Source: Nemertoderma westbladi | Lineage: Eukaryota; Animalia; Xenacoelomorpha | DNA length: 34,968 nucleotides | Direction: 5' to 3' | NCBI GenBank assembly: GCA_032718475.1 | Contig: JAUCBJ010005952.1 | Location: forward strand, 1 to 34,968 | Shown: in pieces, positions 1 to 27,664 of the stretch | Layout of the letters: every line of letters begins with the position of its first letter | Numbering within the stretch: position 1 is the first letter of the stretch | Notes under the pieces: model-generated | Databases searched by the model: none | What the model was told of the DNA's origin: nothing | What the model saw: the letters and a program-made list of their open reading frames with translations, nothing else | Made by a program: the position numbers and the translations under genes

Positions 1-153
1 CTGGTGAAGGGGGTATGTAACGTAGTGAATTAGTTGTTGTGAATTACTTTAGCCTTATTTGTGTATGGAGGGAGATTTGATTTGAGATTATTGTTCTTTA
101 GTTGAATATAATGCGGAATGTAGGAATGTGAGAAAGACAGACTTTTAGATACC

Positions 154-1188
154 CTACTTCAGTACCGTACCTGTTATCTTAACACCGTCGAAGGCCATTT
201 TAAAGGCTCTCCTGTAGCTTAGGGGTGATCCCGATAACAGAAATGCCGCTGGTTCCCTCTCGATAACCACGGTCATAAATAAGTTAAGCAAACTTATCAT
301 CATCCAATCTTCCTGCAGGATATATCGCTTCTGATATATCTTTATCGCTCCTCTGCGGAATTGATATACCTCTTGCTTTCCCGGTCTCGCTCCCCACTTT
401 AGCGAGTTCGCTAGTTCTGCTCCATATTCTTCCCTGAACTTCCCCCAGTCCATCGGTTTGTGGCATACGAGCCCCAATAGTTGGCCCATTGCCACCGCCC
501 CGCATTGGCCTGTGTTTCCGACTACCCCCAACCCATCCGGTGCCGTCATAGCCATGAAGACCTTCTGCATATCCAGGAGGTTGGTGGCGTCCGGACCGAT
601 GATTCTCTCCGCGTCCTCGCGAATCACCGATCCTACTTTCGTCGTCGACTTCTCTCTTACCAAGACTTGTACCGCTTTCGGCAACCGGTTTAATTTCGGC
701 CCGTCCTTCTTCCCATACGTTCCTAGATCGAATAAGAAGATGTCCCCATTTGGCGCGGCCAAATGTAGGAGTATGGTCCTGGCCGACCCCTCCGATCCTT
801 GTCTCGAACCCTCCTCGTCGTCCACGGTTCCCTCGTCGTCTAGGATCATATATCCTCCCCTGTTGACGGACTCTATGAATCTCTTCCAATCCTTCCTCGG
901 TGATTCCCTCGGGTACTTCGGAATCCCGAACTTCGCCTCGTCCCCTTTCACCACGTAGTGGAAGTGTTGGAAGATCGCGTTGTCCAGCGACGGCGTCCCG
1001 TAGGTCCCGACCAGCCACTGTTCGTGCATCTCCCGGAAGTGATCCTGCAGCACTCGTGCCGCGTGACCCCTTTCCAACCTCTCATAGTATCCTCTCGTCT
1101 TCTCTTCCGGATGCCTCTCGGTGAAATCCACCAGTATCTCCTTTCCTCCTGACTACGCCTTTCTCTTTCTGATCAATTTGCTCGCCAT
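154..1188 (-). CDS. DEDDy (DnaQ-superfamily, WRN/EXD2/RNase D-like) 3'-5' exonuclease; ATG at 1188 with one in-frame TAG at 1155-1153, open from 1152 to 154
   Basis: ExoI-like YMILDDEG, then ILLHLAAPNGDIFLFDL, LPKAVQVLVREKSTTKVGSVIRED (KVG...D, ExoII), LLDMQ, LLGLVCHK and YQKRYILQED (ExoIII-like, acid spacing slightly atypical). A CCTTACAG acceptor-like site lies 21 nt upstream of the ATG. Confidence 0.75.
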
Positions 1189-1669
1189 TCCGAACACTCA
1201 CTCGCTCACCTGTAAGGTGGTGCCTTACCAAGGCGCAATACAGATGAGTGATGTATCTAAGATGTTCTGTATGGTCCGATAATGGCCTATTCCTTACTCA
1301 ACTGCGCCCTTTTAGCCTAAATTATTACTAATTAATTCTGAAGCTAGTAAATACACCCTAATTTCAATTTCTGTCAGTTACTTTTATTATATTCCAGAAT
1401 AACTTTCCTAGTGTTGCCATAATTTGTAACTTTCAGCCCTATTCTATTTATTTTAGTTTTAATTCTACTGTCCTACTACTTACTATTGCCTATGGATTAT
1501 TCTATTCTCTAATCCACATTCTGGCCTACTCTGTGGGCCTGTGCAGTACAGCAGTATGCGTCGCGTGGCCACACGATTTACCCAGCTGTACTCATATGCC
1601 CCCCTCTCGCTACTAACTGCTAACTAATATCTATATCTTAAATATATATACCTTTCTACCTCTTACTCT

Positions 1670-2175
1670 CTCTCTAACTAACGGTACTACATACCCTCTA
1701 GCTCTTACTCTCTCTCTAACTAACGGTACTACGTACCCTCTAATTCTTACTCTCTCTCTAACTAACGGTACTACGAACCCTCTAACTCTCTAACTAACGG
1801 TACTACGTACCCTCTAACTCTCTAACTAGCGGTGCTACGTACCCTCTAACTCTCTAACTAAAGGTACTACGTACCCTCTAACTCTCTAACTAACGGTACT
1901 ACGTACCCTCTAACTCTCTAACTAACGGTACTACGTACCCTCTAACTCTCTAACTAACGGTACTACGTACCTTCTAACTCTCTAACTAACGGTACTACGT
2001 ACCTTCTAACTCTCTAACTAACGGTACTACGTACCCTCTTACTAACTAACTAACTAAGGGTACTACGTACCCTCTAACTCTCTAACTAACGGTACTAGGT
2101 ACCTCCTAACTAACTAACTAACTGACGGTACTACGTACCTCCTAACTAACTAACTCTAGGTACTACGTACCTCTT
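1670..2175. repeat. Minisatellite, 15 copies of a GGTACTACGTACC-cored unit (mostly 32 bp; 42 and 36 bp variants at the edges)
   Basis: Cores start at 1683, 1725, 1767, 1799, 1831, 1863, 1895, 1927, 1959, 1991, 2023, 2059, 2091, 2127 and 2159. Consensus is GGTACTACGTACCCTCTAACTCTCTAACTAAC. Confidence 0.95.
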
Positions 2176-2339
2176 AACTAACTTCTGCCTATTAACTGCG
2201 TACCTACTATGTACTATTATTTTATTTTTATTTTCTATTTTTTTATGTGTGGGAAGGGCGTCTCGCCCTCAATCCCACCCCCCTCAGTCCAAAGCTTGGA
2301 CGACTAAACTCTTCTCTAACTCCACTAAGGTGCCCCTTC

Positions 2340-3143
2340 TAACAGACAGGTAACACCTCTGCCCGCACTTTTTTACGGATCTAACTCTTCCATCTCAGTC
2401 CAACTTATTGGACAACTCAGCGACCTAAGGGGTGATTCCTCCAGCAGGCAACTCTCCCACTGCCACCCTATAGGTCCTCTAATTCTTCGCTCCGCTCTCC
2501 TTGTCAATTCTGGTGGCCTTTTCTCCTGTCTTTGGAAATGCTGTCTGTTATTTATGTTTCTGATCTCGTGGTCGTCCCTTGGCGGTAAAGTGCCACCCTT
2601 CAATGTGTCGCCCGGCGGTATAATGCCGCCCCTGTTCTTCTCCTTAATCTTAGATGCCACCTCTGCTGGCCACCCCCTTAATATGTGTGCTGGCATTAAA
2701 GGCCTCGACGACCCCCGTTCGTCCTTCGGTATACACGATCTCTGATGTAATGCCCCCTCGCACTCTGTCAGTCCCGCGTGCGTATGCAGCACGCCTTCTA
2801 CTTTCCCGGCTCCTTTGTCCATCACACGCCCACCCACGGGCTTCTCAGCCCCTGGTCTGGTCGTCTCAAATCTTCTCCCTTTCCATTTAGTCCTCCTGCT
2901 CGGCCTCCCCCTTGTCGGCATGCCTCCCAACCGGACCGGCATCTCTTCCGGACACTCCTCCGGCCTGTCCCCCGGACATTTCGCCGTCCGCTCCTCTCCA
3001 TCTCCATACCGATGCTTGCTGGGACTCTTGTTCCAACCCATCGTCTCTAGATCTTCTGCATCCATGCCATTCTCCTCCGCCCACTCTCTTGGTGTTGCTT
3101 CCACTTCTAGCTGTCTACCACTATTGCCCATCTCTGGCCTCTC
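2340..3143 (-). pseudogene. Degenerate BEL/Pao integrase C-terminal region (end of core plus DUF5641-like tail)
   Basis: LTECEGALHQRS...RPLMPAHILRG resembles the Pao integrase L.EVEA.LNSRP...PLTPAHFL.G. A shifted frame at 2394-2371 reads DGRVRSVK. The main ORF is in frame with the protease ORF across one TAG at 3146-3144. Confidence 0.65.
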
Positions 3144-3981
3144 CTATATCTCGTCGACAGTTCCTGGCACCATGCATCCTGAACTCTCAGACACATGGAA
3201 TGGTATATTACTCTTGATTGGGCCACTCAGCGTCCACCCGAATGGTGTTAATATCGCCACCGGGTCACACTGCTTGTCTTCCCCGAAGACCGTTTGCATT
3301 CTTTCGTGGGCCGTTGGGCAGTCCATTCCTACTATGATGGATACCTTCCTAACGTCCACATCTGGGATTGAGAAGTCAATGTCGTCCAGGAATTTATATT
3401 GCTCGACCTCGATGTTGGTTGGCCGCCTGGCATTGATATTAATTGACTCTATCACTTGGATGGGGTCGATGGTTGCCCCATAGTCGCATCCCGGTGCCAC
3501 TGCTGCAATTGCGCACCGTCCGGTTCTCATCTCCAGGATCTCATCTTTGCTAGAGATGGTTGTTACCGCCATTCTGCTTGGCCTCATTCTCAATCCTATC
3601 TCTTCGGCCACCCATTCCTCGACTAATGTGAAGGCAGCTCCACTATCGACCAGCATTAGTGTTGTTACTGATCGATTGCCTTCCCCAATCACTCGCACGG
3701 GTACTACTCCAAGTAACACCGTTCCTCTCTTCTTCGCCCCTACTGTGCTCGTCGCCATCGTTTGGCCTCTCCTTTGACCGAACTTTACCGGCTTCTCCTT
3801 GCATTCCCTAGCTCTATGTCCACTCATCACACATCGCGAGCAGATTTTATTGCTCAACGCATAATCTATCTGATCTTGCCTAGGTAGCGCCTGCCAGTAC
3901 CTGCAGTTCATGGTCTGATGAAGCGCATTTGCGTGTAGCTGGCATTTGCTCTTTGGGTCGTAGCCCTCCTTATACACGTTC
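3144..3981 (-). pseudogene. Gag zinc knuckles plus Pao-type aspartic protease (DUF1758-like)
   Basis: Knuckles CQLHANALHQTMNC and CSRCVMSGHRAREC; VLLGVVPVRV...LMLVDSGAAFTLV active site; IIVGMD and AILTPFGWTLSGP motifs. Confidence 0.9.
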
Positions 3982-4591
3982 GTGGGGACTTCGCGCAGCA
4001 CGTAGTCGGCAAGCCTTGGCATACGGTTTATATAGAGCAAATGGGGCATGTCTAGTTTGGACCCCATATCCCATGCTATAAATGTATTCATTCGATATAC
4101 AATCATATGTTAATCCGCTAGGTGGTGTCAAATTGTTATTCTGCAATTTCGTACTTACCAGTGCAGCACTGTACAGCAGTACCGTACCGGTAGGCCTATG
4201 TCATTACTTCTGAGTCTCTAGCGGATCCCCAATTAAATGTCTTAACTTTTCAATTTCGTAAAAGATAGACTTCATGATTCTCTACAGGCCACCAAAATTT
4301 CAGCTCAGGAAAATGAGGCCTTCCCGAGAAATTTAACATTTTCTAAAAACCACATAATCTGTCGTAGCTGACGTCAGACTGCATGATTTTTCACCAAACT
4401 TTTCAAACTTTCTAAACTTTCTCTCTACTACTTACCTACTAAGTTTGGTTCAATTCCGAACCAGCGATGCAGAGAAATTCGCGTTCAAACATTTACCAGA
4501 CAGACGGACGGACAGACAGACAGACGGACATGCCCCATTTGCCCTATATGAACCGTATGCCAAGGCTCGCCGACTACGTGTCTCGCCCCAC
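3982..4591 (-). mobile_element. 610-bp non-autonomous DNA element with ~55-bp subterminal inverted repeats and a (GACA/GACG)n microsatellite (HINE/DINE-1-like or MITE), inserted in gag
   Basis: Ends are GTGGGG...CCCCAC, and ~3999-4052 is the reverse complement of ~4527-4580. Removing it restores the gag frame (AIRNAL/NVYKEGY) with no target duplication. Confidence 0.85.
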
Positions 4592-5686
4592 AGTGCATTG
4601 CGTATCGCAGCTGCGTTTGTACCAAAATCCCTACTATTCTTATTGTTTGGATTCGGCCTACTGGACGTACTGGGGTTATATTTATTCGTGTTGTTATTGT
4701 TCCCCTGTTCGTTCCATGCTGTGGTCTTACTTTCGGCTATCTGTGGACTCGTAGTCCCCTGCGTCGCTGCATATGGCAATGATTGCCTGAGCCTCGGTAA
4801 TGCGTTTGATGTATTGTGCTCTGGTTTCGGTCTATGGTAATCCGTCTTCGGTCCCTTTCCCAGGCTATCTTCGCTATAGACTGGGTCAGTTATTAGTTCA
4901 GCCTCGTAGTTTAAGAAGCTTGACATTTCTTCTAAACCCGGTTCCACACCCTTCTTGTCTCGAGTGGAGAAAGCGATTTTCCTCCACTTGTTGCGCAGCC
5001 AGTTCGGTAGTGCCTGCGCTATCGTGGTGATGTTGTTGGACGCGTTGAGCTCGTATGGCGCGTCTAGCGTCTTCAGCACGATTAGCGCCTTTTCGACTTT
5101 GTTAGCGAACGTCTTAATGCTAACGGGATTATCCTGTAGGCCACCCGATGTTATGCCTCTCAGTGTCTGCCTGATGATCTTGGCCGGGTGCCCGTATTCC
5201 CTATCCAGTGCCCGCCATGCTGTCGTGAAGCCGCCCTCTATGCCTTGGTATTGCCTCACGATATCGTATGCTGGGCCTCCCGTGTATACTTGCAGATATT
5301 TTAGGCACTCCGCCTGCGTCAAGTTTTTTGTTAGTATTTCGTTACTATACATGCGCCGAAACTGTAGATATTCTTCCGGCCTACTCCCATCGAATTTGAA
5401 TGGTTCCACGGGTGGTAACTCGATCCTCGTTTTCAACGCATCGATCAACGTGGCCATCCCCATCGCCTGTGCTTCCAATGGGTTCGATGGATGTTGTATA
5501 GTTTCTCCTGTCTGGTGCGGTCCGTCTGTCCTATTTCCACCTTTCCTTTGACTTGGATATGTCATCGGGGGTAGCGGCCCCCTCCATATTTCTGTGTCGC
5601 ACGACCTATTTTCATCCAAGGGTCTCGTTGTTCTTGCTCCTATCGGGGTATATTGTTGATATTGTGATGGGGGAATGTCACCCTGT
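4592..5686 (-). pseudogene. BEL/Pao gag capsid-like core (DUF1759-like)
   Basis: LPPVEPFKFDGSRPEEYLQFRRMY...LKYLQVYTGGPAYDIV...AWRALDREYGHP, then LPNWLRNKW and FLNYEAE. Confidence 0.9.
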
Positions 5687-6738
5687 CCCCCCCCCCCCCC
5701 CCACCGGTATGTTTGGTACTGGGGTTGATGTTAATATGTTGGGGCCCATACACCTATCCGCAATAATTCCCCCCTCCCCTGGGTATATGTTATGTCCCTG
5801 CATGCTGTAGTCATACTGCTGTACTGGTACCGGTATAGGCCTATCAGCTTCTGGCCTACTCGCCGGTATGTATTCCGCGACTTCCGGGTTTAATCCCGTC
5901 GTCCGCGCTATCCTATCGCCTACATTGCCTCTGTCAGTATGGCCTATGGTATGTGCAGTAAGGCCTACAGTATGTCCTACAGTCTGCATGTGTCGCTCGG
6001 GATCGAAGTTTATTCTTCTCGAATAGTCCTCCCCGCGGCTACCGTATTCTCGATCGGTAGGTATATTCCGTCGGAAAGTTTCTCTTCGATCCCCCCCTCT
6101 ACTGTTCTCGTCTTCGTACCGGTACATCGCGTACCCCTCCATCGGCGCGTAATGCGCCTCACCAGGTCGCATCTCTCCGGGGCGACGGCAATCTCCCGGA
6201 GTCCGACCCCACTGACTCTCTGTTCTCATCTCGACTACCGACGGCTCGCTATCCGTCCTCGCTCTTCTATCGTTCGCGGCGATACTTCTACTACTGTCTT
6301 CTCTTCTTCTCCTTTCAGTGGAGTATTCCCGCTCGTGAGATCTCTCGTCGACCTCCCGGTTAAACCCCACTGTTCTTCTTCCCTCTTCTGATCGGGCTCG
6401 ACGCTTCGTCCGCCCTCTTACGACGTCAACCTGTCTCTCTCTGCTCGGTCGCACGCCGCTGGGGATACTCGCAATCCCCCTATTGCTTTCCATCGCCGGG
6501 TGTTGCGGTTTACCTATTTCGGCCCGCGCATTATCCGCTGACGGCTGTGGGACACTCTCTGCCCCCCCCCCCTTTCGCCGCTAACTCGCTGTTGTGGGGC
6601 CCCTGTAGCCCCCCCCCCCCCCCCACTCGCCACATCTAACTTCGCTATCTCTCACCCCGCTACTATATCCCTCTCCAGTCGACACATCAACCCTACCGCG
6701 GTCGGGTCTATTCACCCCCGCCTCTCCCTCTGCTATTG

Positions 6739-6915
6739 CGTGGCCTACCAGGCCCTCTACTCCCTGCCTACCAACTACGTGGCCTACCAGGCCCTCGCTG
6801 GGTCTACCCAACCCAGCCACTCCCTGCCTACCAATTACGTGGCCTACCAGGCCCTCTCTGGGTTGGCTCAACCCCGTCTGCTCCGGCCTACCAACTACGT
6901 GGCCTACCAGGCCCG
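6739..6915. repeat. Four copies of a 39-60-bp coding repeat (GLVGHVVGR) within gag
   Basis: CGTGGCCTACCAGGCCC starts at 6739, 6778, 6838 and 6898. Confidence 0.9.
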
Positions 6916-8412
6916 ACCAGCCCCTCTACATAGCCTACCCCCGGCCATACACGCCCGACGTGTTCACGTTAATAGCACCCATATTGGAAACGGAATTAAT
7001 TTGTTCGTTTGAAACAAAATCATTTGAATTATTTTGTAAATTCGGGCTTGGATCATTACTCAAATTATTTGAATTATTATTATTTTCTAAATTTAAATTA
7101 TTATTCGGATTATTTTGCACCTTCAAATTGAAATTATTATTTGTATTTAAATTTAAATTACTGCTACTAGGTAAAGCATTATTTGCTGCAATAAAGGGAT
7201 TAGGGTTATCCAATACGGTACTATTAATATTAACGATGTCTACTGTAGCATTATTATTACCCCCCCCCCCCCCCCCCCCCTGTACGGTCACACCAGTCTT
7301 GGGTCTGTCGTGCGGTCCCTGTAAGTGGGGTATTAATAAATGTATCCACAGCCCCTGGCTCCTCGAAAATACTCGAGCTTGCCCCACTCTCAGACGCCCC
7401 TATTCGCGCCAGTTCCCGTTCGCGCGTATGTATAGCTTTGTACCCTGTAAGCTCACCTTGACGTTTCTCTAGCTCTTCTCGCTCATACTCCTTTCTTGCC
7501 ATTCTCTCCCTACACTCCCGTGCATCCCGCTCGGCCAATTCCAACTCTCTTCTAGCCCCCTCCCTTCGTCTCGCCTCACGCTCTCTGCGTTCGTTTTCCT
7601 CTCTCGCCTCGCGTTCTTTGCACTCGTTTTCCACTCTCACCTTGCGTTCTTTGCACTCATTTTCCTCTCTCGCTACACGTTCCTTACGTTCCGCCTCACG
7701 CTCTTTGCGCTCATTTTTCTCTCTCGCTACACGTTCCCTACGTTCCGCCTCACGCTCTTCTTGTTCCTTCCTCCCTACTTCCTCACACTCCCTAAGGCTT
7801 CTCGCGGCCCTTTCGGCCCTCTCTCCGGTTTCTTTAATCAACGCCATTTCCCTCTCTAGCAGCACTCTCCCCTCCTCTAACCGTCTACCTACTTCCCTTT
7901 GACCTTGCTCTATCAAATCGAGATGGTACGTGGCATTTATCTCTCTCACCCGTCTTCCTTTCGCGGAGGATGTAGCAGACTTATCGGTTACGACGGATTC
8001 CCTCCGCCTTCCCGACCTACTGACTTTCCCCCGCCTCCCGGAACTTCCTCCGACCGACGAGGCCGAATCTTCGGATTCGCCCTCCTCAGGTCTCTCCCAA
8101 CCCACTAATTTTAGTCCCCGAGCATCGACTAAGTATGGCCCTACGTACACTACGCTAGGTTCCATACCCCTACACCGCCACAAGTCATACAGTTCCTCGG
8201 CAACTCCCCTCGCTCTCTCCTTGGCCAGTTCTCTTTGCCCAAAGCGCATTAGATAATTAAAGTGTTTATTCGACTCACCTAGTCGTTTCCTCAGTCTAAC
8301 CTCGTCTATCTTCGCCCCCTCTTTGGCCTCCTTTAGCAGTTTCTGGGTCGCGTTGTAGGCCCGTCGAAGTCGATCAGAAACCCCGACGTCCTCGTCGCCG
8401 ACCTCTCTTCCG

Positions 8413-8618
8413 TCTCTCCGGGTCCGACGTCGTACCGGCGTCCCACCGTCGCCGTTTCGGTGGGCCGTTCGTCGCCCTCGGCCTGTAGCTGGCCGGCGAC
8501 ATCGGTATCGACATCTCCTCCATCTCTCCGGGTCCGGCGTCGTACCGTCGGCCCCACCGTCGCCGTTTCGGTGGGCCGCTCGTCGCCCTCGGCCTGTGGC
8601 TGGCCGGCGACATCAGTA
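8413..8618. repeat. Tandem duplication of ~111 bp (37 codons) in the 5' part of gag
   Basis: Copies start at 8413 and 8523 (peptide DVAGQ.QAEGDERPTETATVG twice). The left copy is 1 nt shorter near 8440, which shifts the frame. Confidence 0.9.
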
Positions 8619-9473
8619 CGTCGACCCACGTCCCGTGTCGACTCGTCTCCTTCTCCCTCCGTCTCGCTCTCTCCTTCTCTCGGCTCGACCTCGGGTTCCA
8701 GGCGGCCCCCCTCGTCCTGAACTGCCGGATGACCCGTTACCGATGGGTCCGGCGTTGTGGGCCTGTACCGCCTGGTTGCGGCCTCGCGGATCGTTAATTC
8801 TTCGTCCGGGGTCCGCGTCGGCGTTGTCTCTCTCGACTGACTCATCTCGCTTGGTTCGATTGGCGGCTGGTAGTCTTGTTTAGCTAGCTAGGTCGGCAGC
8901 TCTGAGTTCAATTACTGTGCCACCGACGGGTTTAATTACTGTGACGGGATCCAGGGAGGATCCCGGTTTATCCGTTTGTTAATTTACGCGTCCCCGCCGT
9001 GTGTGAAGAGTGAAAGGGTTTACTGTTGTTTGTCGCGTATAATATTCAGGTAAAAGATATAGATATAGATATATGATGTCGTACACAGAAGGCGGGAAAC
9101 GGTAATTAAAGTCCCGGTCCTTCCCTAGCTAAACTAACTAACCTAACTAGCACCAATATGATACTGAGATAACTGAAGTGAAAGTGATTACTGCCAACTG
9201 GCTATATTGCACGGGTTGGCCTTGTTACTCTACCTAATCGATGCCTTTCCCCCCTCTGATTGGTTGATACCCTTGTTGGCGCCCTTTGGAGTGTTCCCGT
9301 TCACTCCACCTGTTCTCTCTGGGTTAGGGGTTTGGCCCCTGACCCTCATTGTGTGTTTCTCCTTCCCATTTTGTTGGGGTGGCACGAGTGATTGATTACT
9401 CAATCTCGTGGCCCCCAATATTGCTTATCGGCTTAACTTTATGGGGTGTTAGCGGGATTGAATAAGCTAACAC

Positions 9474-9590
9474 TAACCATAAACCCAACCCGAACCCGAA
9501 CTCTATCTAACCATAAACTCAACTATAACCCTAACCCAAACTCTATCCCTAACCAAAACCCTAACCAAACTTAAACCCAAACCTAACTAA
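9474..9590. repeat. Degenerate (TAACCC)n-like simple repeat
   Basis: Runs of CTAACC, AAACCC and GAACCC hexamers. Confidence 0.7.
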
Positions 9591-9942
9591 TTCATACATG
9601 GACTTCTAGAATATTATTTTATACCATCTGTACTATGAACATGTATATATATATATATAACATTCTAGAATTATGTGAACAATACTAGTACATTCATACT
9701 AAGGTCATACTATAATATACTATAGAACATGTTAGACATTTTATTTAAAAATATTTTGTTCTCTAGAACTATAACATATTTTGTTCAAGAAAAATTTTAA
9801 AAAATATATTTTTAATTATATATTTTCTTTCTTCTTAAAAATCTTCTAGAACATTCGCGAAGATCGCCACGTTTGCGAAGCTCCGTCTATAGTATTGGTA
9901 AACACAAAATTTAACTTCGCAAACGTGTTTACGAATACTATA

Positions 9943-10757
9943 GGGGATAGTTCTTTTTACAGAACACAAGCGAACACACAAGAACACACCCGAACACAAT
10001 CCAAAAACTGCCGAACACAATCAAACACAGTCGAAAATAGAAAGGGCACAAAAAAAAAACACCGGGTACAACTTTTAGATAAAATTAGTAACGCGTTGCC
10101 TTTCTATAAGAACATTTCCGAAATTATTGAATACAATTGTCGCGAAATTAAATATTCATTTCTTATCAGGTAGGCCTATCATTTGTCGTGTACTGCTGTA
10201 CTGTATAATCAAACTATGCAGGGAAGCCTACGGGTACCGTACCTGTCACACATATAGTAATAGCGGGTTAGCTACAGTAATAGGCCTGATTGCCTGTGTA
10301 CTGGAATAGCTTGGTGTGGAACTGATAGGTACCGGTACCTACCCACCTACTGCTGTACTGGAATATAAAGAGCTGGGTCCCGGTTAGGTACTAACCCTGA
10401 CAGGTAACGGTAGGGATCTCTGTCCCGGTCTAACCACACTTAACTTCGGCCTACTACTATGTTAAATTATTAGTTGTCGGCTTAGGCTAGGCCTGATCTG
10501 ATAAGAAATGAATATTTAATTTCGCGACAATTTTATTCAATAATTTCGGGAATTTTCTTATAGAAAAGCAACGCGTGGCTAATTTTATCTAAAACTAACA
10601 CCAAAAAAAAACACCAACACAAAAAAAACACCGGGTGTGTTATTTTTTTGTGCTCTTCCTATTTTCGACTGTGTTCGTTTGTGTTCGGCAGTTTTTGGAG
10701 TGTGTTCGGGTGTGTTCTACTGTGTTCGCTTGTATTCTGTAAAAAGATCTATCCTAC
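9943..10757. mobile_element. Foldback/MITE element with ~230-bp imperfect terminal inverted repeats
   Basis: ~9945-10178 is the reverse complement of ~10488-10754 (GGATAG.TCTTTTTACAGAA...GTCGCGAAATTAAATATTCATTTCTTATCAG). TA dinucleotides flank both ends. Confidence 0.85.
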
Positions 10758-11532
10758 TATAATAGGTGGCCAATCTTAGAAAAAATCGCGACGTTTGCGA
10801 AATTTCGCGATCTTCGCCGAAGAAATGTTCAAAATCGTTGCCCTACTGCTTTTAAAGGGATAGTAATCAAGTGCCAAAAATTTTATAATTTGTGCACAAT
10901 GACATCCTGAATCGATACTATTACCAGAATTTTCATAAATGCTTATGTTCAAAAATTCTTAAAAAAAACAGATTTTTTTGCCAAATTTTGATACATTTAT
11001 ATTTCAGCTACAACAATGAAACAAAAAAATGTGGTAATAGTAGGTGTTAATGTTAAGCATCACCCAGTCATCATTTGTGCAAAATTTCACACAAATTCGT
11101 TCATTTTTAGAAAAGCCTTTGTATTTTGAAATTGAAATTTGTATTCTTCAGAAAACGCATTTAAAGTTTATGCATGGGGTAATTTTGTTCTTTGAAATGT
11201 TAGAATACAATCCTGCTGAAAATTATGTTGCAAGGGTTTTCCGGGTCGGTGATTTTATTTCTAAAGTCCGTTTACTCATTTGACAGAGTCATGTCTGTCT
11301 GTCGTTGCTGTCTGTCTGTCCGTAAAAATATAACCAACAGCTGAACTGACAAACAGACAATGTGGATGACATCAAACACGAAAAATGAAATCAGCAACCA
11401 GAATAACTCCCATAAAATAACTTTGATCGAGTTGGAGTGCTTTCCTAATATTTTGACAGAGATACAGACTGACAAACAGACAGACAATCAGTCATAAAAG
11501 ACTTCACTAAATGTGAAAACTGACTTTGGAAA

Positions 11533-12957
11533 GTAAAAGTAAAGTAAAGTAAATTTTCTTCGGCCGCTAGGCCAGTGATTACGCGCAAAGTCTGACGACT
11601 TATTTCCAGTGCGGTCTCCCCAGAACTTTACTCCCCAGAGGAAACTCCAGTACTCATTTAGCTACCACTTAAGGATGCAAGGCAGAGATGCGCCCTGCCT
11701 GGTCCCTTTAAAGCATTCGCGCCGAAACGAAAACTGCCCTAGCCCAAGTGATGATCGAACCCACGACCTACAGGAGATGTAGGTCCCTCTTATCTGACTC
11801 TACTGCGACACCCACCCTGTGGAATGGCAAACCAGTGTGTGGTATTTGTCCCGAGAGATGCCTCGGCAAAAAAGCACCCCCCAACCCCCACTATGTAGTT
11901 ATGGGGCTTCCTCCAGGGAGACACACTTGCACCATTCTTGTTTATAATTGTGGTTGACTATGTTCTACGCATGTCCTTAGATCATCATAATGATGATGGG
12001 GTGATGATAACTCCACCTACTTGCTCCAGAAGTCGAGGAAATCCTGCCAAGTACCTAACTGATCTAGACTTTGCTGATGACTTAGGAGTACTCTCAGAAT
12101 CACTAGAGGGAGCCCAACGGCTCCTCAGCTCATTAGAACATGCTGCTTCTAGTGTTGGTCTTTTTATTAACTCCAGAAAGACCAAAATTTTGACAGTTAA
12201 CTTTGAAAGTTCTCAGCAAGTCTCTGATCGGATGAGCATAAGCTCAAAGGATGGTATGCTTGAGCAGGTGGACGTCTTCTGTTACCTAGGATCGTGGATA
12301 CGGAAGTCAGATGAGGACCTTCTAATATGTAAGGGAAAGGCATGGGCAGTCTGGAATAGGCTTTCCGGGATTTGGAAGTCACAGAGAATTAATCGGAAAC
12401 TTAAGGTCCGATTATTTAGAGCAGCAGTAGTTCAAGTACTCCTCTATGGGAGTCCATGCTGGGCTCTAACTGCTGAGGACACCAAATCTCTGGATGGGAC
12501 ATTCACAAGAATGCTACGCCGGGTTCATTGTGTCAAGTACAAAGTACAATGCACACATCTCCAACCAGACACTATATAACATTGGAGGTGTCTCATTGGT
12601 TCCCCCAAGCTTGACACTAGAACAAAATCGTCTCCGCTTTGCAGGACATTGCTTTCGCCGTGAGGACAAGCCAGTGCATAATCTTGTACTTTGGCCGCCT
12701 CATGCAGTGAATAAGCATGGTGGACAGCCCATGACTTTCTTGAGACGCATCTTAAAGGACACTGGCCTTGAAGATGCGGATGATCTAGCAAATGTCATGG
12801 GTGATAGGGAGTTGTGGCGGTGCAATTTTGTCGATAAGCCGGCACAGCATTCTTAAAAATGCAGCTGCAATGCAGCATGCCGATCCTAGTAATAGTAGTA
12901 GTACAGGAGATGTGAATTCAATGCAACCACTACACCAAACCACTACACCAAGGTGGA
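11533..12957 (-). mobile_element. tRNA-derived SINE, interrupted between its A and B boxes by an RTE insertion
   Basis: Minus-strand A box TGGTGTAGTGG at 12937 (duplicated at 12950), B box GGTTCGATC at ~11762-11754, central (plus-strand) GTACTCATTT core and a (TTTAC)n tail at ~11533-11552. TTGGAAA flanks both sides (11526-11532, 12961-12967). Confidence 0.7.
11781..12901 (+). mobile_element. 5'-truncated RTE-clade non-LTR retrotransposon (RT C-terminal half)
   Basis: QGDTLAPFLF, LDFADDL, FCYLGS, LLYG...W and RLRFAGHC motifs; frameshift near 12535-12548; (TAG)n-like tail at 12887-12901; 12-bp TSD TACAGGAGATGT at 11769-11780 and 12902-12913. Confidence 0.9.
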
Positions 12958-14942: not shown

Positions 14943-17312
14943 CTACTACTACTACTACTACTAGGTCGAGCGAACTCGGACAGTGGAAATGAGATCCTTC
15001 CAGGCTTCCCGATTCTCCATAGTTGTCGCAATTTCGTTTCTCCCAAGTTCAGTATCCCTTTCAAGTTGATCTATATATGTTATGGCAGGTCGTCCATGAC
15101 TACGCTTTCCATGAGTTGGTTGCCAGAGAAGTAGATCTGGTATGACCTCGTCTTTACTTCGCCAGCAGTGCCCACTGAATCTTAATCTGCGTTCACGGAG
15201 GGTGGTTGATACAGGTGGTATTGTACCATAAAGCTCGGCGTTTGTCATGTGTTGTCTCCAGCTGATGTTTAGGGCTGCCCTTAGTAGTCTTGTGTAGCAA
15301 CCATCAATTCGTTGTTCAAGTGATTTAGTCAGTGTCCAGGTCTCACCCCCGTATAAAAATACACTTTCCACTGTGGCTCGAAAGAACTTAGTCTTCAGGT
15401 GCCTGGAGAGATCTGATTTCCAGATGGTATCCATTTTTGATAGAGCTACCCAAGCCTTTGCTTTCCTAACTTCTATGTGATTTTTGCTACTCTCTATCCA
15501 TGATCCAAGGTACTGGAAGTCATCGACCTTCCTTAGTTGATTATTATCAATGGTTGTCAAGTTTCCATCAATATTAAAGGTGATGAATTCGGTCTTGGTA
15601 GCATTTATATGCAATCCAACCTCCTTAGCAGCCCTCTCCACTTTATTTAGTAGAAGCTGTGCATCTGCTATGCTAGCGTATTAGAGTGCAGGGCGATGTC
15701 ATCCGCAAAGTCGGTGTCTGTGACTGTAGTTGCCGGATATCTACTACTTCTGCGTTCTTGAAGTGTGAATCCCAGATCTTCACCCTTTGTGGCCGTCCTC
15801 ATTGCGTAATCCAGCACAATTACAAATAGTAATGGTGCTAATGTGTGGATTGAGAAAAACTCAGTTTCACCATCTGGTGAGAGTACCTGCGCTTCTGTGT
15901 CACAATATAACAATCCAATGCCAGCAACAATTACTTCTGGTATTCCATAAGCTCTTAGGATTTCAAGCATTTTACCTCTATGGATGGAGTCGAATGCCTT
16001 CTTGAAGTCCACAAAAGTCATGACTGCGGGGAGATTCTTTGACTTAATTCCTTCAATCAGTCTCCGTAGTGCAAGTATCTGAGCTATTGTTGATCTACTT
16101 GGTCGAAATCCGTTTTGGCTCTTACGCAGTAGTTTCTCTATGTGAGGCCTAATCCTATATAGAATCATTTTATTGTATATTTTGGCAGCTATCACAAGCA
16201 GACAGATCCCACGATAGTTTGTTGGTATGCCGAGGTCTCCTTTCTTGGGGAGAGGCTTTAGTTGACCTTTAGTCCAAATTGGTGGTGGCTTTTCCCCTTT
16301 TAACATCCGGTTGCAAACATTCAATAATGGTCTATTTAGCACTCCGGTTTTCCATACCTCTGCTGGGATTTCATCTAATCCACTCGCTTTATTATTGGAC
16401 ATGCTTTTAATGCTTCTTTGGAGTTCGGCAGGTGTGAAGTCCCCTGTTTCTATAGGTAGTTTCTTGTCATATATTTTCCTTGTAGGGAGGGCTGACCTCG
16501 ATGTTTGGTGGCTGCCTAAGCAAGTTGCTGAAGTGATTTTTCCACTTCCCAACACGTTCTTCAGGACTATCGGCTTTGAGGCGCCCCTTTGCACAACTTT
16601 TCCGACCAGATACCTCATGTGGGCTGTTATTATATTCTGGTATATTGAATCGGTGGATTGGTCTTCATCCATTGACTGAAGTGCTTCAAAGCGGTTTTGA
16701 ACTTCTACTGTATAAGCATCCTTTACAGCATTGTCAGTTCTGAGTTTCTCCCAGTCATAGTTGATTTGCTTGCTTGTCCTGGGTTTGCTGGCTCTCAAAC
16801 TGAGTCTGATCTCTGCAGTCACAATTCTGTGGTCCGAACCAATTAGGTTGAACGAGCTGTATGCCTCGTAGTTGATCATGCTATTTCTCCACTTTTTGTT
16901 TATAAGGATGTAATCCAGTTGTGCTTTGGTTCCATTAGGGTATTGAAAGGTCCATAGCTTCCCCTTACTCTTTTCGAATGTGTTGTTTGTTGGTATCAAT
17001 TCGCATTCTTCCATTAGGTCTAAAAGTAAGTACCCATTTCTGTTAGAACTGGTGTTATAGGTGTAACCCTTGATGTATTCTGGGCCAATTTGCGCATTCA
17101 GGTCACCAGCAATGACTTTAACATTGTGTTTCGGGATGTCCTTAATAAGTCCAGTCAGTTCTTCATAAAACTTGACTGCTTGTTCTGGCTGCATTGGTTG
17201 GACTGTAGCAACATATAACTGTTGTCTTGGGATTCTCATCAAATGTTGCGATCATAACCCTGGAATTTATAGATTCGATGTTGTTTAGGGTCTTAAGTGC
17301 AAGTGTAAGTCT
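14943..17312 (-). mobile_element. 5'-truncated RTE-clade LINE (APE endonuclease plus RT), inactive
   Basis: APE motifs TVICCYSPTN, IAGDLNAQIG, QLDYILI and SDHRIV; RT motifs QNGFR, FVDFKKAFDSI and DFADDIAL; (TAG)n tail at 14943-14963; 10-bp TSD GAATGTGCTT at 14933-14942 and 17313-17322. The QG motif is deleted and a 5-bp duplication shifts the frame near 15668. Confidence 0.95.
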
Positions 17313-17325
17313 GAATGTGCTTTAA

Positions 17326-18881
17326 CCCTATTAGTACCGGGCTATAAAATGCTGTACAAATACCGGGAGGGGGTCATATTGACCCCCCCCTCTAAAATCT
17401 ACAAATATTTACGAAAACGTCTGATTTTTTGTTTGTACGTAGGTATCACTTGTCTGGATCCGACCGAAAAAAAAAATTTTCGAAAAAATGTACTGGGGTG
17501 GTTATATTGCAGCACCAAAATTACAAGTAGTGCACAATTTTCACAAAATTTGAAAGTTACATTTTCGGCTAATTATTTTTCAATACAGGTTTTCTGGGGT
17601 GCAAAATACATTGGAAAATATTTAAAAATGATATGATTACTATAAATGGCCGTTTAGTCCTCTCTGCGTAGGAAAAAAATGAAAAAAACAAGTAACCAGC
17701 ACTTTTCAGGTAGAACACAAAATTTTTAATTCACTTATACGATGCTATAAATTCACATTTTCAGGTTTTCGAGGGCGCTGATTCTAATGGAATACATTTC
17801 TAATATGCCAGATCATTGATACTTGTATTTTTCGGCGTAATTTGGCAAATTTTGGTGCTAGCACCAAATTTCGTACCCATCACCAAAAAGTACAAGTTTG
17901 CGATGTCCAGTGCTGTTTTTATGGATTCCATCGGATTCAGGACCCTCATAAACCCGTATAACGCAAGAAACAAGGTGATACTATCTACTGATAAATTTGC
18001 ATATTTTCCAAAATTTGGTGCTGGCACAACAATTTTCACCCACTGGCGAAAAATACCAGTTTGAGAACTCTTATGAAATTTTTACTGATTCCATTGAATT
18101 CAGAACCATCACAAACCCGTATAACGCAAGAAACAAGGTGACACAATCAATTGATATATTTGATGGTTTTCAAAATTTGGTGCTAGCACCACATTTTGCA
18201 CCCACATCCGAAAAATACAAGTTTGAGATGTCTAGTTCGATAATTATTTATTCCATTGAATTCAGAACAGCCATAAACCTCTAAAACGCAAGAAATAAAT
18301 TGTCACAAGCAATTTTATCTATCGAATGAATTTTCAAAATTTCGTGCTAGCACCAAAATTTGCACACAGCACCGAAAAATGCAAGTTTGATACGCTTGGT
18401 GCAACTCGTATATATTTCATCGAATCCAGAACCCCAAAAAACCCCAATTGCGTAAAAAACAAGTTTCAAACAATCAATTTACAAAATTGACATAGTTCAA
18501 AATTTGGTGCTGGCACCAAAATTTGTCACCCACCGAAAAAAACAAGTTTGAAATTTCTAAATCAATTTATATGAATTCCATCAAATTTCTAACACCAAAA
18601 AACCGGTGTAAATCAAAAATAGAGATGTTACAATTCATATTTAATGAAATGTAATTTTCAAAAAACGTCTCAAAAAAAGTGCCAAAAGTAGGGTTAAAAA
18701 ATGGTGCTATAACTCGAAAAGTACCCAATATTTTTGAAAACGGTTTTCACTACTAGGAAGACAATAGATTTTTAGGAAAAGTCATAAAATTTCAGATTCC
18801 CAACTGCGTTTGTTTCAGAATTATAATAAAAAAACCACGGGGGGGGTCATATTGACCCCCCCCCCCCCGGGTTTAATAGGG
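17326..18881. mobile_element. piggyBac-like non-autonomous DNA transposon with internal ~163-bp tandem repeats
   Basis: TTAA|CCCTATTA...TAATAGGG|TTAA termini, subterminal GGGGTCATATTGACCCC palindromes at both ends, and no transposase ORF. Confidence 0.85.
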
Positions 18882-20471: not shown

Positions 20472-20538
20472 AGGTAGAAAGACTAAAAAACGAATAAAGA
20501 AAAAGTATAGAAAGACATAGAAATTTGTAAAGCAAATA

Positions 20539-20702
20539 CTTGGGTAGCTCTATCAAAAATGGATACCATCTGGAAATCAGACCTCTCCCGTCATATGAAC
20601 ACAAAGTTCTTTCGAACCACAGTGGAAAGTGTACTTTTATACGGGGGTGAGACCTGGACACTGACTAAATCACTTGAACAACGAATTGATGGTTGTTACG
20701 CA
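20539..20702 (+). mobile_element. ~165-bp internal fragment of the same RTE family as 14943-17312
   Basis: Close reverse complement of ~15292-15454 (WVALSKMDTIWKSDLSRH...LYGGETWTLTKSLEQRIDGCY); no tail or TSD seen. Confidence 0.9.
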
Positions 20703-20913
20703 AAGCTAATAAGGTTTCATATTTCAGCAAAAATACTGAAATATATATCACCAAAAATAATAAACCCTTTTTTTAAAATAGGTCAATATGTAATAAGTTT
20801 GCTAAATCGCTACAATATATATATCACAATAAATAATAAATATTTTCCTTTATATATGTTTATTATCGTCATATATTCATTACACCTTCTTTATATGATG
20901 AGGTGCCCTTTAT

Positions 20914-22683: not shown

Positions 22684-23554
22684 TGTAACTTATTATTGAA
22701 CAGCAAATTTTACATATCCCATAAAAGTAGTCATAATTGTGTAGAAACAATATTGTTCACCGGCTGGTTTAGATTAATTAGTACATAAATAAAATAGTTT
22801 AGATATTTTTTGTTAGCGAAGTTATTTCGAATAATAAATTGTATGACTGTTTAATTTACGTTATGACTTTTCGAAGTGTAGGTATTTCTGGGCTTCTACT
22901 TGGATGTTCCTTAAATAAGCTCACCCCATTGGCTAACACTCTCCCATAGCCAAAAGGGGTGTCGGTTGGGGAACATCACTTTTGTTACTTTTAAATTTTA
23001 CGTAGCCTACGCCTGCAATACTCCTTCCGTATTAAACAGGTAAATTACAATTATTTTGTCTAATTTGCTAATGTTTGGTGTTATTTGTACCACACACTCT
23101 ATTAGGTTCAATAATTCATAATGATATTTGTGCAAGCCACGTAGTAGGCGAAGCATTTGTAAACTGTCAGTAGTCTTGGGCGGGGGGCATTAAAGGGAAA
23201 TATTTGTCATTCGTTTTTGTCGCGTAAGCCTACAGGCTTATGATTATTATTAAGACACACAAAAATATAAAAAAAATAATGAAAGTAAAATAGAATTGAA
23301 ACGAGGCTGAAACGACACCCCAATTGGAAATGTGCGCCCTGTCTAGTGATGTTAGTCTGGTATCTAGTCGTTAAGTCCCCCCACCCTCCACCCCCCCCCC
23401 CCCCTCCCCCACCCTAACTAGTTATTAGGAATAGGTTAGTTCCGACATTTATTAATTCTTACATACAGTTTTATTCTAACCTGGTTCTGTTTTAAATTGC
23501 TCTATTGAAATTAAATTTCTTATTGCAATATATAGAGCCAATCTCTAATCTCTG

Positions 23555-25587
23555 TACGGATTCTTCGTTGCATCCTCTGGGTTCATCATGGTCCAACCTA
23601 CGGATTCTTCGTTGCATCCTCTGGGTTCATCATGGTCCAACCTACGGATTCTTCGTTGCATCCTCTGGGTTCATCATGGTCCAACCTACGGATTCTTCGT
23701 TGCATCCTCTGGGTTCATCATGGTCCAACCTACGGATTCTTCGTTGCATCCTCTGGGTTCATCATGGTCCAACCTACGGATTCTTCGTTGCATCCTCTGG
23801 GTTCATCATGGTCCAACCTACGGATTCTTCGTTGCATCCTCTGGGTTCATCATGGTCCAACCTACGGATTCTTCGTTGCATCCTCTGGGTTCATCATGGT
23901 CCAACCTACGGATTCTTCGTTGCATCCTCTGGGTTCATCATGGTCCAACCTACGGATTCTTCGTTGCATCCTCTGGGTTCATCATGGTCCAACCTACGGA
24001 TTCTTCGTTGCATCCTCTGGGTTCATCATGGTCCAACCTACGGATTCTTCGTTGCATCCTCTGGGTTCATCATGGTCCAACCTACGGATTCTTCGTTGCA
24101 TCCTCTGGGTTCATCATGGTCCAACCTACGGATTCTTCGTTGCATCCTCTGGGTTCATCATGGTCCAACCTACGGATTCTTCGTTGCATCCTCTGGGTTC
24201 ATCATGGTCCAACCTACGGATTCTTCGTTGCATCCTCTGGGTTCATCATGGTCCAACCTACGGATTCTTCGTTGCATCCTCTGGGTTCATCATGGTCCAA
24301 CCTACGGATTCTTCGTTGCATCCTCTGGGTTCATCATGGTCCAACCTACGGATTCTTCGTTGCATCCTCTGGGTTCATCATGGTCCAACCTACGGATTCT
24401 TCGTTGCATCCTCTGGGTTCATCATGGTCCAACCTACGGATTCTTCGTTGCATCCTCTGGGTTCATCATGGTCCAACCTACGGATTCTTCGTTGCATCCT
24501 CTGGGTTCATCATGGTCCAACCTACGGATTCTTCGTTGCATCCTCTGGGTTCATCATGGTCCAACCTACGGATTCTTCGTTGCATCCTCTGGGTTCATCA
24601 TGGTCCAACCTACGGATTCTTCGTTGCATCCTCTGGGTTCATCATGGTCCAACCTACGGATTCTTCGTTGCATCCTCTGGGTTCATCATGGTCAAACCTA
24701 CGGATTCTTCGTTGCATCCTCTGGGTTCATCATGGTCCAACCTACGGATTCTTCGTTGCATCCTCTGGGTTCATCATGGTCCAACCTACGGATTCTTCGT
24801 TGCATCCTCTGGGTTCATCATGGTCCAACCTACGGATTCTTCGTTGCATCCTCTGGGTTCATCATGGTCCAACCTACGGATTCTTCGTTGCATCCTCTGG
24901 GTTCATCATGGTCCAACCTACGGATTCTTCGTTGCATCCTCTGGGTTCATCATGGTCCAACCTACGGATTCTTCGTTGCATCCTCTGGGTTCATCATGGT
25001 CCAACCTACGGATTCTTCGTTGCATCCTCTGGGTTCATCATGGTCAAACCTACGGATTCTTCGTTGCATCCTCTGGGTTCATCATGGTCAAACCTACGGA
25101 TTCTTCGTTGCATCCTCTGGGTTCATCATGGTCCAACCTACGGATTCTTCGTTGCATCCTCTCGGTTCATCATGGTCCAACCTACGGATTCTTCGTTGCA
25201 TCCTCTGGGTTCATCATGGTCCAACCTACGGATTCTTCGTTGCATCCTCTGGGTTCATCATGGTCCAACCTACGGATTCTTCGTTGCATCCTCTGGGTTC
25301 ATCATGGTCCAACCTACGGTTTCTTCGTTGCATCCTCTGGGTTCATCATGGTCCAACCTACGGTTTCTTCGTTGCATCCTCTGGGTTCATCATGGTCCAA
25401 CCTACGGATTCTTCGTTGCATCCTCTGGGTTCATCATGGTCCAACCTACGGTTTCTTCGTTGCATCCTCTGGGTTCATCATGGTCCAACCTACGGATTCT
25501 TCGTTGCATCCTCTGGGTTCATCATGGTCCAACCTACGGATTCTTCGTTGCATCCTCTGGGTTCATCATGGTCCAACCTACGGATTC
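23555..25587. repeat. 44-bp tandem satellite, 46 full copies plus 9 bp
   Basis: Unit TACGGATTCTTCGTTGCATCCTCTGGGTTCATCATGGTCCAACC; (25579-23555)/44 = 46. Copies are head-to-tail with no spacers. Confidence 0.99.
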
Positions 25588-26802
25588 CCTTTCCTCCTCC
25601 TTTACTGTCTTTTGATTCTTTATTTTCTTTTCTGCCATCCCCTTTGTCTCACCTAACCTGTGTTGCCTTACTTACTAAGGCTCCATTTAAGTGAGACTGG
25701 TCGTAATTTAACATCCTGTGAGGTTATATCTGTCACGGAAACATTTTGAAGTTGCCTTGGACTGTTATGAACCAATTTAAGTAATTTTAAAATTTTAATC
25801 ACAAATGTTAATACATCGATACATTACTTACCTTCTATATTCAAAGTTTTAATTGTGAAATAATTTTGTTTGATTTTTAATCTCATATTTGTGTTTTATA
25901 ATTACTTTTTCTCACAACATTAGAATCTAGTGCGCACAATATAGGTAAGTTGTGCGCACAACTTATTATCTATTACATTCAATACTGTTTGCTGACTTAA
26001 ACTCCCAAAAACGACGCTTCTCATGAACCTTAGTACTAAAATTTACAAAAAATGAAAATGATATCCATCCTTCATGAAAATTTCAAATTTATAACTTTTA
26101 AATTCGTATCAAGTAGATAGATATATTTATGAATTATTTAAAACAATAACAATACACCAAACAATGTATAAGTATTGTCAAACATAAAATGATTACCCCT
26201 AAACTCATCTCATATTTAACAATTTTTTTTAGCGGGAAATAATATGATAAGGTTGGCAGGAAGTAATTTGGTAAAATAAAACGACATGATAGAAGTATCT
26301 ACGGTAATTTTCTAATTAAATGCAACTTCATTACAAAATAATTGATGATTTAATATAACGAACATTACTAATATAGCAGGTAATAACAATAATTACTAAT
26401 TCAAAGTAGAAAAACAAAGAATAGCACCGAATTTATTCTAACATAATTTAAAATCTATTCCCGTCCAGATCGATATAGGTCTACCACATAGTTTATAATA
26501 ATAACTTAAATATTTTAAAGTTTTGTATTTAAAATTTGGCCCATTAAAATTACATGAGTTTTTGTAAGAGACCAAAAGAAATTTGTAAACAATAAACACG
26601 GTGATGTGAACTATAGCACAAACTTAAATTACTGTGTAAATCTATTTAAATATAATGTAGAAAGATTATAAAACACTTTCCCTAAACTTAGACTAACATA
26701 ACATTATAAGTAACATTTTTATCATTTTATATATGGCATACTCACTAGTCACTCTTACATAGTATATTAATACGGTAGGTTTAGACATACATTTATGTTG
26801 GC

Positions 26803-27132: not shown

Positions 27133-27664
27133 GTGGGGCGAGCCACGAAGTTGGCGGAGCCTTAGCGAATTGACACTGTTAGGGGGTGGGTCAATTTACG
27201 CAAATAGTTGTCGTCGTCGTCGTTGTCGTCGTCGTCGTCGTCGTCGTTGTCGTCGTCGTCGTCGTTGTCGTCGTCGTCGTCGTTACGATTTTGACATGCT
27301 AATAACTTTGTCGGATTTAAAGCTGCCAAGTTGAAAATTTGTAGGTATCAATATGAGCAAAAGTTGAGATTTTTGAGAGACTTTCAGACACCATCAGTGC
27401 AATGGTCTCCCGCTAGAGGGCCACATGTCTAAACATTAAATGCCCTCCCATTTCTTTGCTTTTAATCCGTTTAAGCTGAAACTTGGCAGATATGTATTAG
27501 ACCATTAGCTGTGACTTTCAAAGGAGGCGAATCCATCTGCAGTTCTCCAGTCTGCCGCTAGAGGGCCAACGTGACAACGACAACTATTTGCATAAATTGA
27601 CCCACCCCCTAACAGTGTCAATTCGCTAAGGCTCTGCCAACTTCGTGCTGCGCGAAGTCCCCAC
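27133..27664 (+). mobile_element. 532-bp non-autonomous element with ~75-bp subterminal inverted repeats and a (GTC)n microsatellite; same end family as 3982-4591
   Basis: GTGGGGCGAGCCACG ... CGTGCTGCGCGAAGTCCCCAC ends; ~27144-27215 is the reverse complement of ~27577-27646; (TCG/TTG)n at ~27207-27283. Confidence 0.85.

Follow-up and report, generated by a model that had tools for sequence, protein, structure and literature searches.

A repeated, likely BEL/Pao-derived element carries a probably selected open reading frame likely encoding a diverged WRN-like exonuclease

The DNA analysed here (the window, 34,968 nucleotides from Nemertoderma westbladi) raises the question of whether a BEL/Pao-type retroelement carries, in the env position, an accessory open reading frame (ORF) for a DEDDy 3′-5′ exonuclease. 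The reading preferred here, to which a probability of roughly 0.6 is assigned, is that a likely BEL/Pao-derived repeated element carries a selected ORF that likely encodes a diverged WRN-like DEDDy 3′-5′ exonuclease, which would trim 3′ ends on RNA or cDNA intermediates belonging to that element.

The accessory frame and its element

The accessory ORF opens with an ATG at 1188-1186 on the minus strand and contains an in-frame TAG at 1155-1153 (codon 12), after which 332 codons are open (1152-157, minus strand) before a closing TAG at 156-154. The original prediction, a same-strand frame of about 330 codons downstream of pol with a single in-frame TAG at codon 12, is confirmed on each of these points. 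The encoded product begins with a basic N-terminal patch (KRK), presumably resembling a nuclear localization signal, and an N-terminal extension of approximately 100 residues, followed by the WRN/DEDDy-like exonuclease domain. Whether other copies have the codon-12 stop, as had been asked, can be answered in the negative: in each of the four sequencing runs, 98.5-100% of the contig depth (30, 10, 26 and 1 contigs) differs from the window at this site, making the stop essentially private to the window copy. The description of the frame as uninterrupted holds for the 332 open codons, but the last 10 of these and the closing stop are foreign, because they belong to an insertion that starts at 184. 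Contigs of other copies depart from the window sequence at this position in three runs (6, 3 and 5 contigs), low-depth contigs terminate there, and the minus strand at this point starts with TG, as LTR ends typically do; positions 1-184 are probably a nested LTR-type insertion within the accessory ORF. This low-depth sequence is the end of a 1418-base contig and is probably the LTR of another element. The native frame stops at approximately 185, and the native C-terminus lies outside the window. With the codon-12 stop and the 3′ insertion, the window copy is unable to make the accessory protein.

Upstream of the ORF and on the same strand lie a gag with a DUF1759 domain (Pfam E-value 1.8e-11) and an aspartic protease (Asp_protease_2, 7e-6), along with a weak zf-CCHC match (0.15). 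The BEL/Pao label is based on DUF1759, which we take to be a mark of the gag of these elements. In the consulted portions of two sources, DUF1759 is listed only as a gag/retrotransposon domain (PMC5933816, PMC3391268). The predicted BEL/Pao-type element finds support in this gag and in the protease, but not in a complete pol, which is absent in the window copy. Only about 870 bp separate the protease from the spacer, including decayed integrase-like sequence that stays open for 256 codons (2279-3146), and the motifs in 2279-3143 presumably resemble the final part of a BEL integrase. When this remnant was read in three frames with X at stops, no integrase, DUF5641, RT or RNase H match was obtained, and neither RT nor RNase H was found between the protease and the remnant; the integrase stump of the original prediction is a putative one, based on its motifs. 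Homologue searches with the gag and protease returned no relatives, no second copy of 8700-9700 (LTR) was found in the window, where the 3′ end is interrupted at 184, and the window has no tRNA or Rfam match. The element is likely BEL/Pao-derived and defective, judging from these domains, rather than an intact member of the group.

Other copies spanning site 3146 lack the stop that follows the protease in the window, and contigs in three runs (3, 3 and 4) cross the protease-remnant junction without it, suggesting that the RT-less layout is common to some other copies. Depth is 5- to 50-fold lower in 2600-3200 than in the rest, which suggests that most copies differ at the junction and may carry a full pol. 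It is conceivable, though doubtful, that the copies form a prolific BEL/Pao-derived non-autonomous lineage that has lost RT, RNase H and a working integrase, has kept gag-protease and an independently captured D-E-D-E WRN-like exonuclease under selection, and borrows helper RT and integrase. The coverage of the junction and remnant by other copies and the lack of synonymous bias in the remnant (3/8) favour such a lineage, whereas the drop in depth at the junction disfavours it.

Several features of the element and its surroundings (Table 1) are recorded as observations in their own right. The N-terminal region of gag (5678-8845) is unusually long; it contains tandem repeats of 111, 60, 54 and 33 bp as well as an Asn-rich tract, and is frameshifted at G runs. 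The insertion at 3974-4590 is MITE-like, contains a GACA-type microsatellite and, in run X5, has a depth far above that of its flanks; a related end occurs at 27625-27664, and a second inverted-repeat element at 27144-27647. The 42-bp and 32-bp arrays of the spacer (1655-2179) vary in length among copies, and a degenerate telomere-like (CTAACC)n tract (9467-9566) lies just outside the probable 5′ LTR. Elsewhere in the window are a non-LTR-type reverse transcriptase fragment unrelated to the element (11899-12579, plus strand; RVT_1 E-value 1e-9, DUF6451), a near-perfect 44-bp satellite array at about 23420-25750, and long inverted-repeat elements together with a 160-bp-period repeat with a palindromic core (9936-10764; 15279-15478 with 20515-20714; 17821-18663).

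Table 1. Features of the element, the accessory ORF and its candidate motifs, in window coordinates
Feature	Position	Strand	Basis
Foreign sequence, starts TG at 184	1..184	-	Loose ends at 184; low-depth contigs ending at 184
Accessory ORF, native part, codons 1-335	185..1188	-	Reading frame; contigs of other copies; profile comparisons
ExoIII block, Y289-x3-E293-D294-W295	304..333	-	Block search
ExoII block, K-V-G ... D192	601..639	-	Profile, hhalign, block search
Candidate ExoI D117-x-E119 after a hydrophobic, predicted strand; alternative D124-E127	832..840	-	By eye
Premature TAG, codon 12, essentially private to window copy	1153..1155	-	Contig depth
Non-coding spacer, pol end to accessory ORF, ~1.1 kb	1189..2278	-	42-bp and 32-bp tandem arrays at 1655-2179
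Splice-site-like CCTTACAG/G	1209..1217	-	Fits acceptor and donor consensus alike
Decayed pol remnant, integrase-like motifs, no Pfam match	2279..3143	-	ORF list, Pfam
Gag end (zinc-knuckle-like) and aspartic protease, then stop	3147..3973	-	Pfam; stop site 3146
Insertion of 617 bp within gag, bearing 54-bp inverted repeats	3974..4590	.	Absent from other copies (joints 3973-4590)
Long gag region, frameshifted at G runs, DUF1759 domain	4591..8845	-	ORFs, Pfam
Probable 5′ LTR plus leader, boundaries approximate, with a TG start near 9472	8846..9471	-	Repeated sequence

Copy depth, constraint and probable expression of the accessory ORF

Contigs from four DNA runs (three studies), out of six runs on record of which none is marked as RNA, were compared with positions 1-9700 of the window, the differences, joints and loose ends reported here being a listed subset, with a further 3175 loose ends beyond it. 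In run X1, summed depth, which is not a copy number, is 46-56k over the ORF (325-1296) and 65-123k over gag (4861-6480), against 171 on the flank (contig at 28-184). The accessory ORF evidently belongs to a highly repeated sequence, about as deep as gag, in agreement with the expectation that it would be multicopy and common to other copies. High depth persists through the spacer (24k at site 2192) and the pol end (11.5k at site 2465, like ORF sites 518 and 791). A single contig of run X5 joins 882-1549, and a second one from that run covers 2297-2744 in the pol remnant; the tandem array is crossed by joints at 1638-2014 and 2155-2217. Among the contigs listed, none from a copy other than that in the window includes gag together with the ORF.

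Differences among copies point to constraint on the exonuclease frame. Forty of 1058 differences are listed, 20 of which fall within the ORF, leaving 19 when the stop site is excluded; 16 of the 19 are synonymous in the exonuclease frame where a fraction of 0.29 is expected (p = 1.2e-6), a value that overstates selection because 13 of the 16 lie close together in 310-466 on just one or two contigs of run X5 and are not independent. Synonymous changes are not in excess in the pol remnant (3 of the 8 differences listed; Fisher p = 0.027 against the ORF), bearing out the claim that the ORF is better preserved than pol. Two overlapping frames were rejected as genes: a same-strand shadow frame (284-1081), in which only 2 of the 19 listed differences are synonymous, and an antisense frame (365-958), in which 15 of 19 are synonymous but which shares third positions with the ORF, is shorter and has no profile score. 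Purifying selection very probably acts on the accessory ORF at the level of the element, as judged from these counts, and the ORF would constitute a selected ORF3 of the BEL/Pao-derived element.

The ATG of the accessory ORF has a purine at -3 and a G at +4. The sequence CCTTACAG ends at 1210, 21 nt ahead of the ATG, with an in-frame TGA in between. The acceptor-like site predicted here is correct in position, but its junction (CAG/GTGAGC at 1210/1209) fits a donor consensus equally well, is preceded by 7 pyrimidines in 12 positions and has no advantage over the other 11 weak acceptor-like AGs of the spacer; four further donor-like sites lie upstream. A one-base insertion at 1198, present in about a third of X1 depth, is compatible with a non-coding leader. 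According to one source, ORFs of this kind are usually expressed through a spliced subgenomic RNA (PMC5408684). The accessory ORF is more likely than not translated from its own start codon, on a subgenomic RNA that is probably spliced.

Likeness of the product to WRN-like exonucleases

Standard searches place the product in no family. No Pfam or NCBIfam match was found for the accessory ORF, which falls below every HMM threshold, so the Pfam hit (DNA_pol_A_exo1, WRN_exo) proposed as a check did not materialize. Searches at near and at greater lengths found no homologue, and none came from 5.8 billion proteins and 1.84 billion representatives, or from metagenome, viral and prokaryote contigs; plasmids and phages gave E-values of 3-9 only, and PDB sequences a single chance match (E-value 0.43). 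Two single-sequence structure models are poor (pLDDT 33.6 and 36.4), and fold searches with them gave no meaningful match.

Language-model features and profile comparisons point to the WRN-like family. Atlas, a comparison of language-model features whose error rates are unmeasured for protein parts, scored residues 70-305 of the native frame at 0.94 among named clusters, with 179-184 shared features; all 30 named matches fall in PF01612/WRN-like clusters, in which the family is present on 34-50% of members, and the whole frame scores just 0.86-0.87. Measured against a reference profile built from 40 WRN-like proteins of bacteria, the ORF obtains 7.4 bits (pairwise E-value 1.7e-4), a fit equalled by none of 1000 shuffles, while the best other ORF of the window reaches 0.2 bits. 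The score of 24.6 from hhalign was attained by none of 150 shuffles, yet corresponds to a probability of 6%. Six ordered blocks score 44.4 (0/500 shuffles as high), whereas the three Exo blocks are matched by 2/500 shuffles and ExoI with ExoIII alone by 52/500. RNase D-like (16 sequences) and PolA (14 sequences) profiles fit worse than the WRN-like profile, with 23/1000 and 156/1000 shuffles as good, respectively. These shuffle comparisons are targeted tests, since the WRN-like family was picked after the motifs had been seen. The feature score, the profile, hhalign and the six blocks support the DEDDy/WRN-like domain of the original prediction, and the product very probably has a DnaQ/WRN-like fold.

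The claim of WRN/EXD2/RNase D-like motifs in the correct order is sustained for the beta2/beta3 strands, ExoII, beta5 and ExoIII, whose block order is supported, but not in full for ExoI, which received no automatic placement and was located by eye, or for the residues of ExoIII, which read Y-x3-E-D-W. D192 aligns with the ExoII Asp that is present in all 40 references. In ExoIII, the Y-x3-D of DEDDy proteins is not found: E293 occupies the position at which 40/40 bacterial WRN-like references carry Asp, with D294 adjacent, and the listed difference in codon 293 among copies is synonymous. Spacings between blocks exceed those of the references (75 versus 59-63 and 97 versus 65-68). The residues suggest that the product is a WRN-like relative with an altered site rather than a strict DEDDy member, and the odds lean slightly towards metal-dependent activity through D117, E119, D192 and E293 or D294, with Y289.

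Proposed function, rival explanations and known systems

In the preferred reading, selection on replicating copies would keep the accessory ORF, and its product would be made separately from gag-pol, adopt a WRN-like exonuclease fold, its N-terminus bearing a basic patch, and trim RNA or cDNA of the element at the 3′ end in a metal-dependent manner. If the protein is active, the chances are about even that it acts on nucleic acids of the element itself and not on silencing RNAs of the host.

An unlikely but serious alternative is that the exonuclease fold is kept with little or no catalysis, the protein instead binding RNA or host silencing factors in a counter-silencing or RNP-shielding role. 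A Glu that takes the place of the ExoIII Asp and is conserved in other copies, the weak ExoI and the long insertions agree with such a protein, and a precedent exists in Maelstrom and EXD1, inactive DEDD derivatives in piRNA biogenesis according to the consulted part of one source (PMC5408684). However, carboxylates occupy all four positions, the ExoIII Tyr and Trp are kept with an Asp following the Glu, and rotifer ORF3s that also swap D and E (DEED) are thought to be possibly active in the same partial account (PMC5408684). It is improbable that the ORF is a real, selected accessory gene of another fold whose likeness to the motifs is due to chance; while standard searches find no DEDDy relative and sequence scores are low, the language-model features and three shuffle-controlled profile tests agree on the subfamily and on ordered blocks.

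Two further alternatives concern the origin of the ORF rather than its product. Marginally less probable again is that the ORF is part of a separate repeat that adjoins the BEL-like element either here or in a small number of composite copies. A link between gag and the ORF in another copy is absent among the listed contigs, no 3′ LTR was seen, depth falls in 2600-3200, and the loose ends considered are a minority of the total; against this, the ORF shares its strand with the element, the ORF, gag and protease are alike in purine richness and in GC at each codon position, high depth persists across the spacer and pol end, and joints cross the tandem array. Retroelements are known to capture host sequence, and the ORF could be a fragment of a host exonuclease gene picked up by chance and retained neutrally, but this is very improbable given the strong synonymous bias among copies and an intronless frame with its own ATG in a good context. 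Recent capture from the host is also disfavoured because the close cellular homologue expected from it was not found among the proteins searched.

The preferred reading, a selected and WRN-like accessory exonuclease, has its nearest parallel in bdelloid rotifers, where a DEDDy-exonuclease ORF3 is known in the Juno and Vesta LTR retrotransposons and in Athena/Terminon elements, as described in the consulted portions of these sources (Rodriguez et al. 2017, PMC5408684; PMC6431247; PMC5718144). The statement in the original prediction that some rotifer LTR elements carry DEDDy extra ORFs is borne out by Juno and Vesta. The ORF3 of these elements and the window ORF are both, on the same partial basis, separate ORFs 3′ of pol, in the env position, with a DEDDy-type domain and a D/E swap in the catalytic set; in the window, the ORF lies on the same strand in a repeated element, linked through overlapping pieces. 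Juno and Vesta are gypsy-like, whereas the window element has a DUF1759 gag of the BEL/Pao type. The swap differs as well, being located at ExoIII in the window ORF (D-E-D-E) and reading DEED in the rotifer ORF3s so far as the consulted text goes, and the window domain is set apart from the rotifer ORF3s by fitting WRN-like better than RNase D-like profiles. RT and RNase H, moreover, are missing from the window copy and some other copies, in contrast to Juno and Vesta. A 3′-end role has been put forward without proof for the rotifer DEDDy ORFs (PMC5408684), and the DEDDy domain is a known retroelement accessory (PMC6338049), both according to partial text.

WRN/EXD2-type exonucleases (PF01612, DNA_pol_A_exo1) share with the window ORF the ordered beta2/beta3 strands, the K-V-G...D of ExoII, beta5 and the Q-x2-Y...W of ExoIII, and differ from it in that the window ORF has Glu for Asp in ExoIII, longer loops and an N-terminal extension of about 100 residues, is mobile and multicopy, and lies below every HMM threshold. 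Among Belpaoviridae, some BEL/Pao elements carry env as a third ORF after pol; the window ORF is likewise a third ORF after pol, but has no Pfam envelope match and resembles an enzyme domain. Dada DNA transposons carry a DEDDy domain with a proposed role in 3′-end processing during transposition (Kojima and Jurka 2013, PMC3706591; consulted in part) and represent another transposon-borne DEDDy exonuclease. As described there, the Dada domain has all four DEDD residues and lies inside the DDE transposase, unlike the free ORF of a retroelement seen here.

No exonuclease ORF in a BEL/Pao element was found in the literature covered, with subscription journals and Repbase outside this scope and a prior description possible. 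DEDDy cargo is already known from rotifer LTR elements and Terminons, and a WRN-like version lacking any detectable homologue, in a BEL/Pao-type element, would be new. The high copy number of the family and its many natural variants make the function of the accessory ORF testable. If the preferred reading is true, the ORF represents a further, probably independent nuclease capture in another LTR superfamily, which would suggest that retroelements recurrently need 3′-end trimming, or binding by a nuclease fold, rather than this being an oddity of rotifers.
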